Below are positions 11,244-18,851 of a stretch of 44,716 nucleotides of DNA, piece by piece. Source of the stretch: Chloroflexia bacterium (lineage in GTDB: Bacteria > Chloroflexota > Chloroflexia > Thermomicrobiales > UBA6265); the NCBI GenBank assembly GCA_013698305.1, contig JACCVC010000041.1:1-44716 (forward strand). Direction: 5' to 3'. A model generated the notes under the pieces. That model worked only from the letters and a program-made list of their open reading frames with translations. It did no database searches and was not told where the DNA came from. Both the position numbers and the translations under genes were made by a program. How positions within the stretch are numbered: position 1 is the first letter of the stretch; each line of letters starts with the position of its first letter.

Positions 11244-12299
11244 TCAACCCCGGCGAAGCTCCTGGCCACCCGCGAGCGCCCGCTGATACAGATGCAACGA
11301 CTCGGCGACCTTGCCCGTTCCTCGCGCGACACAGGTGAGCGGATCCTCGGCGCGATGCACCGGCATCCGCAACTCGCTCTGCAACCGGCGGTCCAGCCCC
11401 ATCAGCAACGCGCCACCACCCGCGAGGGTGATGCCATGCTCCATGATGTCGGCGACCAACTCAGGCGGCGTTTCCTCGATTGCCGTCTTCACCAGCTCGA
11501 TAATCGTGTTGACCGGCTGCGAGATCGCGTCCCGCAACTCGACCGAGCTGACCTCGACCGCCTTCGGCAGGCCGGTGAGCAGGTCGCGGCCACGCAGTGG
11601 TACCCGCACCTCTTCCTCAAGCGGGTAGGCGGAGCCCGCCGCGATCTTGGCGTTCTCGGCGGTGCGCTCGCCGATCACGAGGTTGTGGTCGCGGCGAGCG
11701 TACTGGATCAGCGCGTCGTCAATCTCGTCGCCCGCCACCCGGATCGAGTGGTTGACGACGATGCCGCCGAGCGAGATCACGGCGACCTCCGTAGTGCCGC
11801 CACCAATGTCGACGATCATGCTGCCGATCGGCTCGTTGATCGGCAGGCCAGCGCCGATCGCGGCGGCCATCGGCTCCTCGATCGTATAGGCTTCACGCGC
11901 TCCCGCCGACAGGGCGGCATCCTTGGCGGCGCGTTTTTCGACTTCAGTGACGCCGCTGGGAATGCCGATCACGACGCGAGGGTGCGGCGCCATCAATCGC
12001 TGCATGTGTACCTTGCGGATGAAGTAGTGGAGCATCATTTCGACCGTATCGAAATCGGCGATCACGCCGTCCTTGAGCGGGCGCACCGCAATGATCGAAT
12101 CGGGCGTCTTGCCCATCATCGCCTTGGCTTCCATGCCCACCCACAAGGCGCGTTTGGTCTTGGTGTCGATCGCCACCACCGATGGTTCCGAGATGACGAT
12201 GCCCTTGCCGCGAACGTAGACAAGCGTATTCGCCGTTCCGAGGTCGATGCCAAGGTCCCGGCTGAACAAGCCGAACAGCGCAGATAGGGGACGGAACAA
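11244..12299 (-). CDS. mreB: Rod shape-determining actin homologue MreB
   Basis: Motifs FSRDLGIDLGTANTLVY, DIGGGTTEVAV and GGGALL. I prefer the TTG at 12299, which has GGAGG 9 nt upstream. The ATG at 12347 (track start) has no RBS. Confidence 0.9.
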   Translation of the reverse strand: MFRPLSALFGLFSRDLGIDLGTANTLVYVRGKGIVISEPSVVAIDTKTKRALWVGMEAKAMMGKTPDSIIAVRPLKDGVIADFDTVEMMLHYFIRKVHMQRLMAPHPRVVIGIPSGVTEVEKRAAKDAALSAGAREAYTIEEPMAAAIGAGLPINEPIGSMIVDIGGGTTEVAVISLGGIVVNHSIRVAGDEIDDALIQYARRDHNLVIGERTAENAKIAAGSAYPLEEEVRVPLRGRDLLTGLPKAVEVSSVELRDAISQPVNTIIELVKTAIEETPPELVADIMEHGITLAGGGALLMGLDRRLQSELRMPVHRAEDPLTCVARGTGKVAESLHLYQRALAGGQELRRG

Positions 12300-12582
12300 G
12301 GCCGCAAACCTCCGGGAAGTATCCCCGCGCGCCGGATGACGGCGCATGGCAAGGAGAGTGCTACAACGTGTCGTGGAATCGGTGCGGGAAAGACGGGCAA
12401 GAGGTCGTTAATGCAGCCACATCGGAGGCAGGGAACGCGACCCATTGCTCTCTATAGTCCGCAGGGGAGTATATCATGCACGTTCGTTCCCTCTTGCCTT
12501 TGCGCTCGATCACCGCGACGATACGGCTAGTTGCGACCAGCAGCAGTGGCAGGACTTCGGCTTCACGCAAAGGAACGCGCAG

Positions 12583-13398
12583 ATGCAAACTACCTCCACA
12601 TCGGAAAGCGTCGTCGATTGGGGACCTTTGGCGGCCGAGCTTGCCAGGATTCCCGAGACCATGCGGGTCTCGATCTTCGCGCGTGATCTCGAGGGCGGCA
12701 GCACGCTCGAGCACGACGCTGATCGGGCGATGACCGCGGCAAGCACGATCAAGACGTTGATCCTGGTCGCCGTCGCTCGCGCCATTGACGCCGGATCGGT
12801 CACACTCGACACGCCAGTCACCGTCACCGATACCATGCGGATCGGCGGCTCCGGCGTGCTGAACTGGCTGCATGACGGCATCACCCTGCCGGTGGAAGAC
12901 CTGGCATGGCTGATGATCGCGATCTCCGACAACTCTGCCTCTAACGCGTTGATCGAAGTCGCGGGGCTCGACAAGATCCAGCACCTCGCCCACGAGATTG
13001 ACGTCCCAACGCTCCATCTGGCTCGCCCCTTCCTGGGCCGCGCTCCCGCCGATGGGCAAAACCGAAACCAGGTCACCGCCCGTGGCCTGACCGACCTGCT
13101 CACCGCGATCTGGAACGACACCGCCGCTTCCCCGGAGCGATGCGCCTGGATGCGAAAGCTGCATGGCGACCAGCAGCACACGGATCGGCTCGCCCGCGAC
13201 CTTTCCGATGGCGTTCTCTATGCGGGCAAGACCGGGACCTTGAAGGGGGTGTCGCACGACTGCGGCGTCATCACTGGGCCGTCCGGGACGATTGTGATCA
13301 GCGTGCTGGTCGAGAGCGATGCCACCTCCTACGACGACGACGCGTTCATCGGTTCGCTCGGCCAGGCCGTCGCGGAGATGGTTTCAAACGAAAGGTAA
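12583..13398 (+). CDS. Class A beta-lactamase-like serine hydrolase, no recognisable signal peptide
   Basis: Motifs S-T-I-K (SxxK), SDN and KTG (GKTGTL). The start ATG at 12583 is preceded by AAAGGA. The upstream part of the track ORF looks non-coding. Confidence 0.78.
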   Translation: MQTTSTSESVVDWGPLAAELARIPETMRVSIFARDLEGGSTLEHDADRAMTAASTIKTLILVAVARAIDAGSVTLDTPVTVTDTMRIGGSGVLNWLHDGITLPVEDLAWLMIAISDNSASNALIEVAGLDKIQHLAHEIDVPTLHLARPFLGRAPADGQNRNQVTARGLTDLLTAIWNDTAASPERCAWMRKLHGDQQHTDRLARDLSDGVLYAGKTGTLKGVSHDCGVITGPSGTIVISVLVESDATSYDDDAFIGSLGQAVAEMVSNER

Positions 13399-13404
13399 GT
13401 CCAC

Positions 13405-14577
13405 ATGCGCATCACCGGCGTTTCCACCTACATTGTCGGCAATCCCTGGAAGAACTGGCTCTTCACGCGCCTCGAAACCGATCAGGACGGTCTCTACGGC
13501 ATCGGCGAGGGCACGCTCAATGGATTCGCCAAATCGGCCGAGGCGGTAATTCACGAGCTCACGCCCCGTTTCGTCGGCACCGACCCGTTCCAGATCGAGA
13601 CGATCATCCAGCGAATGACCCGCGACCTCTACTCCGAGGGCGGCCAGCTTCAAATGAATGCGGTTGCCGCGATCGAGGTCGCGTGCTGGGATATCATTGG
13701 CAAGGTTACGGGCCGCCCGATCTACGACCTGATCGGCGGGCGCTATCATGAATCACTGCCCGCCTACGCCAACGGCTGGTACGCCGGGCCGCGCACGCCG
13801 GAGTCGTTCGCGGAGCGGGCGAAGGAGGTCGTCGACGCCGGGTACAAGGCGCTCAAGTTCGACCCGTTCGGCGCAAACTGGCGCACGATGACGCTGCCGG
13901 AGCGCCACCTGTCGATCGACATCGTCCGCGCTGTGCGCGAGTCGGTTGGACCCGAGGTCGAGATCATGATCGAGGTCCACAGCCGGCTTAGCGTCTCGGA
14001 AGCCGTCTGGATCGGGGAGCGGATGGCCGAGTTTGAGCCGACCTGGTTCGAGGAACCGACCGGTCACCAGAACATCGCCAGCACTGTCGAAGTCGCCCGC
14101 AAGCTGAGCGTCCCGGTGGCGACCGGCGAAAGCTTCTCCAGCCCGCAGCAATTCGCGGAGCTGCTGTCCCATGACGCGGTTCATATTCTCCAGCCGGAGC
14201 CTGGCAACATGGGCGGTATCTGGCGTACCCGGCAGGTCGCCGCGATGGCCGACGCACACTACGGCGTGGTCGCCCCGCACAACGCCCAGGGGCCGATCTC
14301 CACCGCCACCTGCATCCAGGTCAGCGCCGCCTGCCCGAACCTGCTGGTGCAGGAGATCTTCGACGAGTACAACGTCGAGTGGGAGCGAGAGATCGTCGAC
14401 TTCCATTCCGAGGTGATCGACGGTTGCATCACCATCCCGAACCGCCCTGGACTCGGCGTCGAGCTCAACTGGAAGGAGCTCGAGAAGCACCCCTACGAGG
14501 TCAGCAACTTCCTGCCGCTGTTCGCCCCCGGTTGGGAACGCCGCGAGGGTGAGCGCCCGCAACTCGATCCGGACTGA
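13405..14577 (+). CDS. Enolase-superfamily enzyme (mandelate racemase/muconate lactonizing family; galactonate/mannonate dehydratase-like)
   Basis: MRITGVSTYIVGNPWKNWLFTRLETDQDGLYGIGEG..., AIEVACWDIIGKVTGRPIYDLIGG and the later acid-sugar dehydratase-like pattern. It starts 7 nt after the preceding stop. Confidence 0.82.
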   Translation: MRITGVSTYIVGNPWKNWLFTRLETDQDGLYGIGEGTLNGFAKSAEAVIHELTPRFVGTDPFQIETIIQRMTRDLYSEGGQLQMNAVAAIEVACWDIIGKVTGRPIYDLIGGRYHESLPAYANGWYAGPRTPESFAERAKEVVDAGYKALKFDPFGANWRTMTLPERHLSIDIVRAVRESVGPEVEIMIEVHSRLSVSEAVWIGERMAEFEPTWFEEPTGHQNIASTVEVARKLSVPVATGESFSSPQQFAELLSHDAVHILQPEPGNMGGIWRTRQVAAMADAHYGVVAPHNAQGPISTATCIQVSAACPNLLVQEIFDEYNVEWEREIVDFHSEVIDGCITIPNRPGLGVELNWKELEKHPYEVSNFLPLFAPGWERREGERPQLDPD

Positions 14578-14642
14578 ATCTCATCTCGCGTCGGCTCGAG
14601 TCGCCTGATCAGCAATCTCACAACCTGACTATTGCCGCGTCA

Positions 14643-14670
14643 GTAGGGCAGAGTAGGGGCGTCCTGCTCC
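14643..14670. repeat. Degenerate REP-like element (two GTAG heads, weak 5-bp stem)
   Basis: Sequence GTAGGGCAGAGTAGGGGCGTCCTGCTCC. Only GGGGC/GCTCC pairing is possible, with one G-T wobble. Confidence 0.35.
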
Positions 14671-14716
14671 GATTAACTCGTGCGAGTTACCGTTCCGATC
14701 AGGGAGAAGCCAACCA

Positions 14717-15265
14717 ATGCCGCCTCTTGTCATGACCGAACGCGGCAGCGCCGTGTTGCCGGGCGGAACCGAACGGCTGTCGTTCACGACCATGATCGAG
14801 CGCAACGGCAGCGATCTGTATCGTTTCTCCTGGTCGATCACCGGTAACCCGCACGACGCCGATGACGTCTATCAGGAGACGCTGCTGAAAGCCTTCAAGG
14901 CGTGGAAGCGGTTGCCGGGTGACGCCAACCACCGCGCCTGGCTGTTCCGGATCGCCTCCAACACCTGGATCAGCGACCGCCGCAAGCAACAGCGCTTGCA
15001 GGAGCTTGGCGACGAGGCCAACGCCATTCCCGCCCGCGACCCGGACGCCGCCCGCCAGCTCGACGCCCGCGACACCCTGCGGGAGGTGACATCGGCGATC
15101 GCCCTGCTGCCGGCCAAGCAGCGCACCGCCCTGATCCTCCGCAAATACCACGATATGGAGTACGCCGAGATCGGCGACGTGCTCGACTGTACTGAGGAAG
15201 CGGCCCGCGCCAGCGTCTACCAGGCGCTCAGGAAACTCCGAGCCGAATTCGCCACCGCGCTGTGA
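14717..15265 (+). CDS. ECF-type RNA polymerase sigma-70 family factor
   Basis: Region 2 DADDVYQETLLKAFKAW...WLFRIASNTWISDRR. Region 4 LPAKQRTALILRKYHDMEYAEIGDVLDCTEEAARASVYQALRKLR. RBS GGGAGAAG is present. Confidence 0.9.
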   Translation: MPPLVMTERGSAVLPGGTERLSFTTMIERNGSDLYRFSWSITGNPHDADDVYQETLLKAFKAWKRLPGDANHRAWLFRIASNTWISDRRKQQRLQELGDEANAIPARDPDAARQLDARDTLREVTSAIALLPAKQRTALILRKYHDMEYAEIGDVLDCTEEAARASVYQALRKLRAEFATAL

Positions 15266-16107
15266 CACCCTGCTCTGGTAGCGTCGGGTCTTGTTCCCGA
15301 CCATCGACCGAAAGGACCTGCACCTCCATGAACCGCACTCCAACCATCCACCTACCGCCAGTACCCGGCGCGGTCATCGCCGCGATGGATACCGCGGATG
15401 ATCCCTGCGACGTCGTCGAGGACGCCATGCCCGCCCTCGTGATCGGTGATCTCGACCAACCCGATCAATCGGCGATGTCGGCGCACATCGCCGCCTGCAA
15501 CTCCTGTCGGGAGGTTCAGCAGGACTGGGAGCGGGAGCTTTCGTCCCCGGCGCCACCTGACGAAGCCGCGCTGCCGGAAGCCGCAGCCGCGCTGGGCCTG
15601 CGCCGGGGGCACTACGGGTTCATGGACAGCCCGGTCGGTGACCTGCTGCTGGTCGTGACTGACTTCGGCATCTGCGATGTCAGCTACCTCATCAATCACG
15701 ATCGGGAGGATCGGTTCGGGGAGCTGGAAGGGCGGGGCATTCTCGCCACGGAGAGGGCGGCCAGCGTGGCCGGCGTCAAGGATGAGCTCGTGGAGTACTT
15801 CGGCGGGCAGCGCAACGCGTTCTCGGTCCCGGTCGATCTCTACGGCGTCACCCCATTCACCCGCGGCGTCCTGGAGGCGACGTCGGATGTGCCGTTCGGT
15901 AATCTCCGCACCTACCGAAGTGTCGCCGCCGCGATCGGCAACCCCAGGGCGTCACGCGCGGTCGGGAACGCGCTCGGTCGCAACCCGATACCAGTGATCG
16001 TGCCCTGCCATCGCGTCGTCCGGTCGGACGGGTCGATGGGCTGGTACACCGGCGGGGTTGCTATAAAACGCACCTTGCTGACCATTGAGGGCGTGACGTT
16101 TATGTAG
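15262..16107 (+). CDS. Fusion protein: N-terminal zinc-binding anti-sigma (ZAS, zf-HC2-like) domain plus a complete methylated-DNA-protein-cysteine methyltransferase (MGMT/Ogt)
   Basis: The GTG at 15262 overlaps the sigma stop (GTGA); an alternative ATG is at 15328. The HxxxCxxC motif HIAACNSC is at 15484-15507. The C-terminal roughly 165 aa form an MGMT N-domain plus DNA-binding domain, with active site PCHRV at 16003-16017. No TM segment is present. Confidence 0.8.
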   Translation: MTPCSGSVGSCSRPSTERTCTSMNRTPTIHLPPVPGAVIAAMDTADDPCDVVEDAMPALVIGDLDQPDQSAMSAHIAACNSCREVQQDWERELSSPAPPDEAALPEAAAALGLRRGHYGFMDSPVGDLLLVVTDFGICDVSYLINHDREDRFGELEGRGILATERAASVAGVKDELVEYFGGQRNAFSVPVDLYGVTPFTRGVLEATSDVPFGNLRTYRSVAAAIGNPRASRAVGNALGRNPIPVIVPCHRVVRSDGSMGWYTGGVAIKRTLLTIEGVTFM

Positions 16108-16129
16108 CCTCGGACTTCGATGTCCGAGG
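16104..16129. repeat. REP-like hairpin whose GTAG head contains the stop codon of the preceding gene
   Basis: Sequence GTAG-CCTCGGAC-TTCGAT-GTCCGAGG, a perfect 8-bp stem. TAG at 16105-16107 is the stop of the anti-sigma/MGMT gene. Confidence 0.75.
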
Positions 16130-16168
16130 TTGGTGTGGGGCCAATTCAGACCTCTTGTGCGGTCTCTA

Positions 16169-16933
16169 TTACCAATTTCGTTGCCCGTCATGGCGCGCTC
16201 GGACACCTCGGTCCGGGCCTACGGATATCAACCCTAAATCCCGCAACGCCCGCCACGTCGATGGCGCGGCCTGGCCGTCGTCTATGGCCAGATGCTCCCT
16301 CAGCCGTTCGAGATCGTCCTCGACATCGACATCGAACGTCTCCGGCGCCTCCGCCACCCGCAGCCCAAGCGCACGGGCATGGTCGATCACGCCGTCCGCC
16401 GCCGAGGCGGTGCTCATCTCAACGCCCTGCACGATCTCCTGAAACCCGCGTTGGCCGATCAGGTAGTAGCCACCGTCCAGCACCCGCCCGATCACCACAT
16501 CGCTCTCGACCAACGCCTCGAACGCCCGCAACAGGACCTCGCGTTCGATTTGGGGAGAATCCGACGCGATCAGGAGCGTCCTGGCGTAGCCTCCATTCGA
16601 TCCCCATTCCAGCAACGCGCTCTGCCGGGCGCTCCAATCTTCGTCGTCGATCTGCGGCACATAGTGGACATGCTCCGGTGCCTTGCCGGTAGCCTGCCGC
16701 AGCTCGTCCCGGAAGTCGATGTCGGGTGGGGAGTGGGTCCACGCCAGGTCGTACTCAGGATTGCCATCGTCAACGTCCGGCGTCAACCGGGCGGCGAGGT
16801 CGCGCAGGAACGCCGAGTACAGCTTCGCCGCCCGCTCCATCCCGATCGCGCGTCCCAGGCGCGTCTTGGTCGCTCCGGCGTGGGGCGCGCGGGCGGCGAT
16901 CATCACCAGGCAGTCGCTGCGTCGTTCGATCAT
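16169..16933 (-). CDS. DUF2064 (TIGR04282-type) nucleotidyl/glycosyl-transferase-like protein
   Basis: N-terminus MIAARAPHAGATKTRLGRAIG...AAKLYSAFLRDL and DGGYYLIG are typical of DUF2064. The ATGA overlap with the upstream GT2 suggests translational coupling. Confidence 0.7.
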   Translation of the reverse strand: MIERRSDCLVMIAARAPHAGATKTRLGRAIGMERAAKLYSAFLRDLAARLTPDVDDGNPEYDLAWTHSPPDIDFRDELRQATGKAPEHVHYVPQIDDEDWSARQSALLEWGSNGGYARTLLIASDSPQIEREVLLRAFEALVESDVVIGRVLDGGYYLIGQRGFQEIVQGVEMSTASAADGVIDHARALGLRVAEAPETFDVDVEDDLERLREHLAIDDGQAAPSTWRALRDLGLISVGPDRGVRARHDGQRNW

Positions 16934-17715
16934 CGCTCGCTGCTGCCTTGCTGCTTGATCGCTTCGGCGAGGTCGGGTGGTAGTGGGCTATCGTCCTTCC
17001 GCGCCCGGAAGATCGCCATGATGATCCTGTACCCCGCCTTCAATGACGCCTTGACGTTGCCGCTGACCTTGGAGACGCCTCCGCTCCGTTTCCGGTAGCT
17101 CACCGGCACTTCGCTTACGGTCAGGTCGTTGCGGGCGGCGCGGACGATCATCTCGATCGACCAGCCGTAGGTCATCTCCCGCATGCCAAGCCGCATCAGG
17201 TCGCTTTTGCGAATGACTCGAAACGGCCCGATATCGGTCAGGCTCACGCCATGGAATCGCTTGACGAGAAATGCCGCCACCCGGTTGCCGACGATCTGCT
17301 GCGGCATCAACGATCCAGGCTCGAAGCTTCCCCGGATGCGTGATCCCACCACCAGGTCAGCCTCGCCGGCCAGCAACGGCGCGACGAGCAGCGGGAGTTC
17401 CGCCGGTCGGTCGCAGCGGTCACCGTCCATCAGCACGATCAGGTCGACCGGACCGCTGGCCAGCACGCCGCTCAGGCAGGCGCGTCCGTAGCCAGGCGTT
17501 GGTTCCGTCACGATGCGCGCTCCCGCCTGGGCCGCCACCCGCGCCGTGCTATCGGAAGAGCCGTTGTCGACCACCAGGATATTTACGATCTCGACCGGAT
17601 TCTCTGCATCGTCGGCAATCGCCCGGATCTCGGCGACCAGTTCCCCGATCGACTCTTCCTCGTTGAGACAGGGGATCACCACCGCGGCGGTGAGTCGCTT
17701 TTCACCAGTCGTCAT
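16930..17715 (-). CDS. Family 2 glycosyltransferase, polyprenyl-phosphate sugar synthase-like (DPM1/ArnC-like)
   Basis: Motifs AVVIPCLNEEESIG, VVDNGSSDST, LMDGD and a C-terminal amphipathic/basic tail. It has 4-nt overlaps with both neighbours. Confidence 0.8.
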   Translation of the reverse strand: MTTGEKRLTAAVVIPCLNEEESIGELVAEIRAIADDAENPVEIVNILVVDNGSSDSTARVAAQAGARIVTEPTPGYGRACLSGVLASGPVDLIVLMDGDRCDRPAELPLLVAPLLAGEADLVVGSRIRGSFEPGSLMPQQIVGNRVAAFLVKRFHGVSLTDIGPFRVIRKSDLMRLGMREMTYGWSIEMIVRAARNDLTVSEVPVSYRKRSGGVSKVSGNVKASLKAGYRIIMAIFRARKDDSPLPPDLAEAIKQQGSSER

Positions 17716-18851
17716 ACCGTCGTACCCGAGCGAGCCTGTTTCACGACCTGCCGCTCGCGCAACCGTCGAGCGGCCTCGGTGAAGTACTCGCCGACATCGC
17801 CCTGCTCGCGTATCCAGTCCAGGTAACGGTCGATGCCTTCCTCCAGTCCGGTTCGAGCTTCGAATCCAAGCTCACTGATCTTCGTGGTGTCGCTGATCAG
17901 CGCTCGCATCTCGCCGGGACGGTACTCGCCGGGGATGTCCGGCTCGATCTCCTTGCCCAGCTTCTCGGCCAGCAGCCGCGCCAGGTCACCGATCGCCGCC
18001 GCGTTGCCGGTGCCAACGTTCATCACCTGACCGTCGGACCGAGCATCGGTCGCGACCAGCATGTTGGCTCGGGCGACATCCTCGACGAAGACCAGATCGC
18101 GCGATTGCTTGCCGTCCTCGTAGACCACCGGCGGCAGGTCGTTCATCAATCGCGTGCAGAAGATCGCGATCACCCCGGTGTAGGGGTTGAACAGCGACTG
18201 GCGCGGACCGTAGGTGCAGGAGTAGCGCAACGCGGTCACGGGCAGCCCGGTCGCCCGTCCGAATGAGATTGCCAGCCGCTCCTGGTCGGCCTTGCTGATC
18301 GCGTAGACGTTTTCGCCTCCCATCGGCGCGGCCTCGTCGGTGGGGACGGGCCGGGATGGCTCGCCACAAATGGGGCAGTGCATCAGGTAGTCGCCTTGCT
18401 CCAATTGCGAAACCGGGCGCGTTTTGCCGTAGAAGTGCCCATGCCCGTCGCAGGTATAGGCGCCCTCGTTGTAGACCGCCTGCGACGAGGCCACTACCAG
18501 CTTCCTGATCGGTAGGTCGTTGTTGCGAATCGACTCCAGCATCAGCGCTGTTCCGTAGGAGTTGACGTGAATGAATTTGGCGATCTCGGGCATGTAGCCG
18601 CCATAGGCCGCCTCGTGGAAAACGACGTCGACGCCGGCCAGCGCGCGGTCCCAGTCGTCCTGGTTGCGGACATCGCCGTGGATGAACTCGACCTCATCGC
18701 GAATCCAGCCCGGCTTGCCTTCGGCGTGGGTCTGCGGTTCGAGGCTGTCGAGCACGCGCACATTCCAGCCGCGAGCCAGCGCCTCATCGACGATGTGCGA
18801 CCCGATCAGTCCTGCGCCGCCGGTTATCAGTGCCGTAGTCGCCTCTGCCAT
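17712..18851 (-). CDS. NAD-dependent epimerase/dehydratase (extended SDR) with a Cys/His-rich insertion
   Basis: Rossmann motif ITGGAGLIGSH. Catalytic SS...YAISK. There is an insertion of roughly 35 aa (TCDGHGH...HCPICG) between the Ser and Tyr-x3-Lys boxes. Confidence 0.85.
   Translation of the reverse strand: MAEATTALITGGAGLIGSHIVDEALARGWNVRVLDSLEPQTHAEGKPGWIRDEVEFIHGDVRNQDDWDRALAGVDVVFHEAAYGGYMPEIAKFIHVNSYGTALMLESIRNNDLPIRKLVVASSQAVYNEGAYTCDGHGHFYGKTRPVSQLEQGDYLMHCPICGEPSRPVPTDEAAPMGGENVYAISKADQERLAISFGRATGLPVTALRYSCTYGPRQSLFNPYTGVIAIFCTRLMNDLPPVVYEDGKQSRDLVFVEDVARANMLVATDARSDGQVMNVGTGNAAAIGDLARLLAEKLGKEIEPDIPGEYRPGEMRALISDTTKISELGFEARTGLEEGIDRYLDWIREQGDVGEYFTEAARRLRERQVVKQARSGTTV

Follow-up and report, generated by a model that had tools for sequence, protein, structure and literature searches.

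Extracytoplasmic function (ECF) sigma factors and their cognate anti-sigma factors form the third major way in which bacteria transduce signals, and the input signal of many ECF groups is unknown. One such group, ECF122, is listed in a 2022 review citing Casas-Pastor 2021 without a cognate anti-sigma factor and with conserved neighbouring 6-O-methylguanine DNA methyltransferases for which a regulatory role is proposed through an uncharacterised mechanism, and its representative is WP_057211282.1 from Cellulomonas sp. Root930 (PMC8999054). A 2023 review of the alkyltransferase family describes fusions to EndoV and to histone-like domains and treats Ada as a variant, and contains no anti-sigma fusion (PMC10779285). 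Here we analyse a 44,716-nucleotide (nt) stretch of DNA from a Chloroflexia bacterium (assembly GCA_013698305.1, contig JACCVC010000041.1; hereafter the window) in which an ECF sigma factor gene is followed by a gene for a predicted zinc anti-sigma (ZAS) domain fused to an O6-methylguanine-DNA methyltransferase (MGMT; also Ogt). A first-pass annotation made from the sequence had pointed out this pair and suggested that it senses alkylation damage; what it described in the sequence holds, except for the start codon assigned to the second gene, and the mechanistic interpretation is plausible.

The pair occupies two adjacent plus-strand open reading frames (ORFs) at 14717-15265 and 15262-16107, the second being readable from a GTG at 15262. 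Pfam analysis of the upstream ORF identified Sigma70_r2 (E-value 3e-17, amino acids (aa) 26-93) and Sigma70_r4_2 (E-value 1e-12, aa 122-174) and nothing further, and the NCBIfam sigma70-ECF model TIGR02937 scored 96.7 bits against a cutoff of 42.9, confirming its earlier designation as an ECF sigma factor. The protein has the domain content that defines ECF group 4, being small and built of sigma-2 and sigma-4 only, without region 1.1 or region 3. No further sigma factor or MGMT besides this pair was found in the 44.7-kb window.

The downstream ORF carries three Pfam domains above their gathering scores, zf-HC2 (PF13490), Methyltransf_1N (PF02870) and DNA_binding_1 (PF01035), the same three for which the first-pass annotation had suggested a profile search. 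A profile of the N-terminal domain matches the solved sigma-bound anti-sigma factors RsiW (5wuq_C, E-value 2.5e-5) and RslA (3hug_B, E-value 8.6e-4) in an alignment that covers helices II-III and includes the zinc motif, and the distance of 26 residues from Cys27 to His53 is the classical ZAS spacing. AlphaFold2 modelled the fusion with a mean predicted local distance difference test (pLDDT) of 90.9, placing helices at residues 15-22, 26-39, 44-56 and 58-71 ahead of a linker modelled at lower confidence (about residues 72-84) and two MGMT domains. The PF13490 score, the RsiW and RslA matches and the predicted helical module together uphold the earlier proposal of an N-terminal ZAS domain, and at the level of sequence they support a genuine class I/ZAS anti-sigma domain. 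The linker shows no regular structure, with pLDDT down to ~69 in block 71-80, and varies in length and sequence among homologues. Also as first described, the fusion lacks a transmembrane segment: over 19 residues its Kyte-Doolittle mean peaks at 1.47, within a beta-strand of the MGMT N-domain. Pfam searches at E-values up to 1 returned no match in the fusion to the Ada zinc domain or to an AraC-type helix-turn-helix.

The remainder of the protein is, as judged from its sequence, a complete MGMT domain with all catalytic residues present. The ogt model TIGR00589 scored 101.5 bits against a cutoff of 46.4, the best sequence match in the Protein Data Bank was Mycobacterium tuberculosis OGT (4bhb, E-value 3e-37, 37% identity), and Foldseek superposed the MGMT part of the AlphaFold2 model on M. 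tuberculosis OGT (4bhb/4wxd) with a template modelling score of 0.85 and a root-mean-square deviation of 2.0 over 161 columns. The residues of the MGMT/Ogt Glu-His-water-Cys network, the Asn hinge, the Arg finger and the binding-pocket Tyr residues are all present, and in our own alignment to the human sequence Y196, R210, N219, Y240 and E254 correspond to human Y114, R128, N137, Y158 and E172. Both Pfam domains, the Foldseek superposition and the catalytic residues thus agree with the original reading of a full two-domain MGMT/Ogt with an intact PCHRV site, and the motifs it had located, HIAACNSC, PCHRV and the upstream Cys of DPCDV, lie where it had placed them (Table 1).

The junction between the two genes is organised differently from what had been claimed. 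The first-pass annotation had started the fusion gene at the GTG at 15262, in a GTGA overlap with the sigma stop codon; this start was rejected on the N-termini of the closest homologues and on comparison with L081, a syntenic relative that shares neighbouring genes with the window and encodes a fusion protein 83% identical. All four closest homologues listed (80-93% identical) begin with MNRTP or MDRTP. After the sigma stop, the L081 spacer is poorly conserved relative to the window, differs by a 4-nt indel and has, 9 nt ahead of its ATG, an in-frame TGA, and a block comprising the ribosome-binding site (RBS) and the ATG, ACCGAAAGGAC..TG..CCTCCATG, is kept in both. On the strength of these homologue N-termini, the indel and in-frame TGA, and the conserved RBS-ATG block, we take the ATG at 15328 as the true start. 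Genuine ATGA overlaps between sigma and fusion genes were seen in Gemmatimonadota, Acidobacteriota, Methylomirabilota and some Chloroflexota relatives. Because a scan of 14400-16400 for sigma-70 promoters and terminators detected neither between the sigma and fusion genes, the two are almost certainly co-transcribed. At many Chloroflexota loci (L005, L007-L012, L014-L016 and others) the sigma and fusion ORFs share a reading frame that one stop codon interrupts, with an ATG 3-21 nt beyond it. Stop-codon read-through at the junction was considered and rejected, since the two frames differ in the window and are the same in L081; as the frame relation is not conserved even between these two, we treat a shared frame as chance in GC-rich DNA.

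The architecture defines a conserved protein family. A protein search with the fusion gave 2129 matches, of which the best 120 were examined for motifs. These homologues are 236-325 aa long, above the length of a plain Ogt, and they retain H-x3-C-x2-C in 120 of 120 cases and PCHR in 119, a degree of sequence conservation far above chance. In a 91-sequence alignment, C27, H53, C57 and C60 are invariant, as is the alkyltransferase set Y196, R210, N219, P226-C227-H228-R229, Y240 and E254. One protein from a metagenome-assembled genome (MAG), the 88% identical P0002, has the active site VPCDHVV in place of VPCHRVV, either through a sequencing error or as an inactivated copy, and several database entries (P0242, P0243/L027) are frameshifted inside the MGMT domain. 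We used the anti-sigma domain profile to search 1.84 billion representative proteins and obtained 43 matches at E-values up to 1e-10. Those bearing the signature DPCDV..AMP..GDL were either fused to MGMT or fragments of such fusions left by truncation or frameshift, so this anti-sigma clade exists only fused to MGMT; the remaining matches were generic multi-ZAS proteins. Public annotation of the homologues names only a methyltransferase.

Pairing with a sigma gene is equally consistent. We scanned a single representative genome for each GTDB species; the 80 loci obtained were translated and searched with both window proteins. An N-terminally extended MGMT was present at 62 loci, and each of the 62 had an ECF sigma gene immediately upstream on the same strand; at the 18 loci with a plain MGMT, 16 had no sigma gene, one was cut off by the end of its contig and one had a weak, doubtful sigma-like match. 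The survey of co-occurrence proposed in the first-pass annotation therefore found every extended MGMT paired with an ECF sigma factor. The 62 loci belong to Chloroflexota (Chloroflexia, Thermomicrobiales, Sphaerobacterales), Gemmatimonadota (many of them Candidatus Palauibacter), Acidobacteriota, Methylomirabilota and one Frankiales MAG. ORF clustering of these loci identified the sigma and fusion genes as the sole gene pair kept across phyla; it found no repair gene among lineage-conserved neighbours, and none of the other neighbours was kept across phyla. By these sequence comparisons, the fusion is a conserved family with an obligate ECF sigma partner.

A shared promoter accompanies the pair. 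Upstream of the window sigma gene lies an ECF-type promoter (Table 1), and the pattern TCTCAC-N14-17-GCGTY has a single match in the whole window, at 14616-14642. The corresponding element precedes the sigma gene as TCTCAC-N14/15-(G/A)CGT(T/C) in ~27 Chloroflexota loci, as TTTCACG-N14-ACGTT in ~24 Gemmatimonadota loci and as CTCACA-N14-(G/A)CGTT in three actinobacterial loci, giving conservation in >50 related loci from three phyla. This pattern suggests that the promoter is used by the operon's own sigma factor, as would be expected of autoregulation. In the actinobacterial loci the first base of the promoter lies 34 nt before the sigma start codon, so the leader there must be very short or absent. 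Neither a sigma-70-type promoter nor an Rfam match was found in 14400-16400, leader included. The leader block at ~14634-14674 is nearly identical in L081, where a perfect 14-nt palindrome GACTCGCGCGAGTC occupies the site of the window palindrome ACTCGTGCGAGT; other relatives have different GC-rich hairpins right after the promoter, such as GTGGCC...GGCCAC in L002/L003 and ATGGGGC..GCCCCAT in L027. The leader palindrome could act as an operator or influence RNA stability.

Table 1. Positions of the predicted promoter, genes, protein domains and motifs of the sigma-fusion operon in the window
Feature	Position	Strand	Evidence and remarks
-35 element TCTCACA of ECF-type promoter	14616-14622	+	Conserved upstream of sigma genes
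-10 element GCGTCA of ECF-type promoter	14637-14642	+	14 nt from -35
Predicted 5' leader	14643-14716	+	Palindrome ACTCGTGCGAGT at 14676-14687; RBS GGGAGAAG at 14702-14709
ECF (group 4) sigma factor, 182 aa	14717-15265	+	Sigma70_r2 and Sigma70_r4_2 (Pfam); TIGR02937
Non-coding spacer, 62 nt, with RBS GAAAGGA (15310-15316)	15266-15327	+	Comparison with L081
Anti-sigma-domain-MGMT fusion, 259 aa	15328-16107	+	Start ATG 15328; GTG 15262 start unsupported
Predicted class I anti-sigma domain, ZAS type (~aa 12-72)	15361-15543	+	zf-HC2 PF13490, 24.5 bits against gathering score 22.2; RsiW/RslA profile matches; AlphaFold2
Predicted Zn ligand 1, Cys27 (DPCDV)	15406-15408	+	Invariant in 91-sequence alignment; 26 residues N-terminal of His53
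Predicted Zn ligands 2-4, H53-x3-C57-x2-C60 (HIAACNSC)	15484-15507	+	Invariant in two family alignments (one of 91 sequences)
Pro/Ala-rich linker (about aa 73-88), anti-sigma domain to MGMT	15544-15591	+	AlphaFold2; homologue variation
MGMT N-terminal (ribonuclease-like) domain	15610-15840	+	PF02870, E-value 6e-8; Foldseek
MGMT C-terminal DNA-binding/alkyl-acceptor domain	15853-16095	+	PF01035, E-value 2e-30; TIGR00589
Active site PCHRV, acceptor Cys227	16003-16017	+	P226, C227, H228 and R229 invariant

These features lead us to propose that the ECF sigma factor and the fusion are a sigma/anti-sigma pair, which we consider probable. We further propose, and hold to be about an even call, that the pair is an autoregulated two-gene module in which a soluble anti-sigma factor, with a working alkyltransferase as its sensor/output domain, keeps the ECF sigma factor inactive until alkyl transfer triggers release. 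Three of these steps we infer: that the anti-sigma domain binds the sigma factor, that alkyl transfer signals its release, and that release proceeds through conformational change or proteolysis. At rest, one transcript would make both proteins, and the N-terminal zinc anti-sigma domain would sequester the sigma factor 1:1. Repair of O6-alkylguanine or O4-alkylthymine would move the alkyl group irreversibly onto Cys227, and the resulting change in the MGMT domain, or ensuing proteolysis, would free the sigma factor. The free sigma factor would then transcribe its own operon from TCTCACA-N14-GCGTCA, restoring the consumed repair protein, and possibly drive further targets elsewhere in the genome, and the response would shut off once unalkylated fusion again outnumbers lesions. 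The proposed link from alkylation to release draws by analogy on published alkyltransferase properties, as alkylation destabilises the fold, disrupts contacts between the N- and C-terminal domains and leads to degradation (PMC10779285). More speculatively, the MGMT domain may contribute to the sigma interface, given the short linker to the MGMT N-domain and the seeming lack of a canonical helix IV in the model.

Where the signal enters the fusion is the point on which one alternative differs. Sensing could take place at the ZAS site itself, as in RsrA and loosely in Ada, with oxidants, electrophiles or SN2 alkylators attacking the zinc-bound cysteines, zinc being lost and the sigma factor freed, and with MGMT acting as co-delivered repair or as a DNA tether. 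Ada offers a precedent in its methyl-accepting zinc thiolate joined to an MGMT domain, and C-x25-H-x3-C-x2-C is invariant in the Chloroflexota family, although zinc is merely structural in many ZAS proteins, for example RsiW. Zinc motifs are enriched in soluble class I anti-sigma factors and linked to redox sensing (PMC7406223). We nevertheless regard ZAS-site sensing as unlikely on account of the lineage variants. Six Palauibacter loci (L043, L046, L048, L049, L055, L066) have R-x3-C-x2-C (ERMAACPxC) and have gained an N-terminal C-x2-C-H, a sequence arrangement that might possibly form a Cys4 site; three other Gemmatimonadota loci (L058, L075, L076) have lost the zinc-motif cysteines (DLAACPDL, DLAASPDL); and acidobacterial L047 has an anti-sigma-like helical extension without zinc ligands. 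In the actinobacterial modules (Frankiales L071; Carbonactinospora thermoautotrophica L082-84; L085), the sigma factor is 155-161 aa long and the MGMT next to it 169-205 aa, the MGMT's extension being at most 40 residues and including no anti-sigma domain. PCHR and the catalytic set are kept in all of these Gemmatimonadota, acidobacterial and actinobacterial variants. Because the zinc ligands have been changed or lost, or were never present, in some lineages and the MGMT Cys is retained in every intact copy, sequence conservation makes alkylation of the MGMT a likelier signal than chemistry at the ZAS thiolates. The actinobacterial modules lie at 5540-6600 of L071, 4001-5100 of L082 and 4001-5144 of L085; C. 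thermoautotrophica is cultured. The sigma and MGMT genes of L082 overlap by 4 nt, and a formamidopyrimidine-DNA glycosylase gene adjoins the L085 module on the opposite strand.

Other readings dispense with damage sensing or with the anti-sigma function. The fusion could be a homeostatic brake, its anti-sigma domain providing negative feedback while any induction comes from general proteolysis, growth phase, another regulator or the like, and sigma binding is the same whether or not Cys227 is alkylated. A single autoregulated operon for both proteins would suffice for such a self-limiting circuit, actinobacterial relatives run the sigma-MGMT module without a fused anti-sigma domain, and ECF122 is placed under 'unknown mechanism' in review (PMC8999054). 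This account nonetheless leaves unexplained why the anti-sigma clade is fused exclusively to MGMT and why the fusions strictly retain the acceptor Cys and catalytic residues, and it ignores the published destabilisation of alkylated alkyltransferases (PMC10779285); we judge it rather improbable. That the N-terminal domain instead provides an unusual Ogt with structural zinc binding or with a second repair activity, the sigma factor merely transcribing the gene, strikes us as quite unlikely, since the domain profile matches RsiW and RslA across helices II-III with the zinc motif, the gene stands directly downstream of an ECF sigma gene in the canonical sigma/anti-sigma order, often with an ATGA overlap, and Pfam gave no match to the Ada zinc domain or AraC. 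Human AGT, with a zinc site in its N-domain, and the N-terminal domain of Ada (N-Ada) are the cases with which such a module would be compared, and it would fit the zf-HC2 score barely over its threshold, the NCBIfam anti-sigma models scoring far below their cutoffs, the lack of a clear helix IV in the AlphaFold2 prediction and the public annotation of homologues as methyltransferases only. An assembly or frameshift artefact joining two genes, a caveat raised in the first-pass annotation, found no support, although frameshifts do occur in a few database homologues (P0242, P0243/L027). The chance of such an artefact is negligible: the architecture is continuous in >100 homologues from independent metagenomes and MAGs of several phyla, and the linker stays in frame with a confident AlphaFold2 model on either side of it.

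Several observations weigh against the alkylation-sensing module that we prefer. The actinobacterial modules share the sigma-MGMT pairing and the promoter without any anti-sigma domain, so the ancestral relationship may simply be that the sigma factor drives ogt, with regulation coming from elsewhere. AlphaFold2 predicts no clear helix IV between the anti-sigma module and the MGMT domain, and since none precedes the linker, the binding mode of the anti-sigma domain may differ from that of canonical class I domains. Reports of degradation upon alkylation concern alkyltransferases of human, mouse, yeast and archaeal origin, and the 2023 review regards its extent elsewhere as not established (PMC10779285). 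Finally, the search for other target promoters covered the 44.7-kb window and the ~6-kb flanks of relatives, and as those flanks hold almost no second copy of the promoter across ~60 related loci, the operon is the only demonstrable target.

Synteny around the operon is confined to lineages, with a DUF2064/family-2 glycosyltransferase/epimerase set and an enolase-superfamily gene in Chloroflexota and other genes in Palauibacter. In the window, three minus-strand genes at 16169-18851 converge on the fusion gene, with 4-nt overlaps at 16930-16933 and 17712-17715; by synteny with L081 they encode a DUF2064 protein, a family-2 glycosyltransferase and an NAD-dependent epimerase, and their order is kept in a subset of Chloroflexota relatives. 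On the other side, genes assigned by eye or by synteny encode an MreB-like actin homologue (11244-12347, minus strand), a class A beta-lactamase-like ORF (12445-13398, plus strand) and a mandelate racemase/muconate-lactonising protein of the enolase superfamily (13405-14577, plus strand), the last ending 139 nt before the sigma gene.

The fused domain points to irreversible alkyl transfer from damaged DNA as the likely signal of this sigma factor. If so, the module would couple repair to transcription in a new way, using a consumable enzyme as the inhibitor and counting lesions one to one, and the O6-alkylguanine load would be read out stoichiometrically by a system that replenishes itself. 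It would also supply a mechanism for the unexplained group ECF122 and an alkylation response for mostly uncultured phyla, in which we know of no described Ada-type system. The module is found in at least five phyla, namely Chloroflexota, Gemmatimonadota, Acidobacteriota, Methylomirabilota and, without the anti-sigma domain, Actinomycetota. We tentatively suggest, at somewhat short of even confidence, that it represents an ancient and unrecognised DNA-damage response apart from SOS and Ada, in which each alkyl transfer would destroy one inhibitor and free one sigma factor. ECF sigma/anti-sigma pairs are already used as orthogonal switches, and with two genes and a defined promoter this module could serve as an encoded reporter or switch for O6-alkylguanine or for SNAP-tag-type substrates such as O6-benzylguanine.

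Among described regulators, the closest in form are the soluble ZAS factors and their relatives, RsrA/SigR (ECF12), ChrR/RpoE (ECF11), RslA/SigL and RsiW/SigW. The window protein shares with them H-x3-C-x2-C and a ligand 26 residues before the His, as well as a helical class I domain, a gene directly after that of an autoregulated ECF sigma factor, and placement in the cytoplasm. It differs in its C-terminal partner, which is a suicide DNA-repair enzyme in place of nothing (RsrA), a cupin (ChrR) or a transmembrane and extracytoplasmic part (RsiW and RslA), and in the absence of a clear predicted helix IV. The proposed signal differs too, being covalent alkyl transfer from DNA, whereas the known factors respond to thiol oxidation or regulated intramembrane proteolysis.

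Escherichia coli Ada likewise joins an N-terminal zinc-cysteine module to a C-terminal MGMT, and its self-alkylation induces its own gene, as proposed for the window protein. The Ada N-domain, however, is a Zn(Cys)4 methylphosphotriester acceptor combined with an AraC-type helix-turn-helix acting on sigma-70 promoters, whereas the proposed output here is release of an ECF sigma factor. The NCBIfam Ada model covers only the MGMT half (aa 118-276 of the 281-aa ORF) and scores 79 bits against a cutoff of 345, and on this sequence comparison the two proteins are analogous, not homologous, in their regulatory halves. Stand-alone Ogt/MGMT proteins such as M. tuberculosis OGT (4bhb) have the same two-domain fold with all the catalytic residues present, to which the window protein adds a ~90-residue anti-sigma domain and linker and a genetic tie to a sigma factor that 16 of 18 plain MGMT loci lack.

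The first-pass annotation had known of no characterised example of this architecture. Among the papers searched we likewise found none, and no anti-sigma/alkyltransferase combination except a one-line mention of ECF122; novelty does not extend to the sigma-MGMT neighbourhood, which is already listed for that group (PMC8999054). The main text of Casas-Pastor 2021 makes no mention of the neighbourhood, and a search with the Frankiales sigma factor returned actinobacterial relatives, none recognisable as the Cellulomonas reference. Like ECF122, the window sigma gene adjoins a 6-O-methylguanine DNA methyltransferase gene, and the Frankiales module sigma is 27% identical to the window sigma (E-value 5e-16). 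Because the actinobacterial modules seen here fit the ECF122 description and share the CTCACA-N14-CGTT promoter type with the window, the window sigma factor probably belongs in or next to ECF122. In contrast to that group, listed without an anti-sigma factor and with an actinobacterial representative, the window lineage is of the Chloroflexota type and its MGMT itself carries a ZAS anti-sigma domain. What is new is the recognition that, beyond Actinobacteria, a bona fide ZAS anti-sigma domain forms part of the neighbouring MGMT, and that the pairing extends to at least five phyla with a conserved promoter; the fused domain thus makes explicit the regulatory logic of a neighbourhood that had been listed for ECF122.

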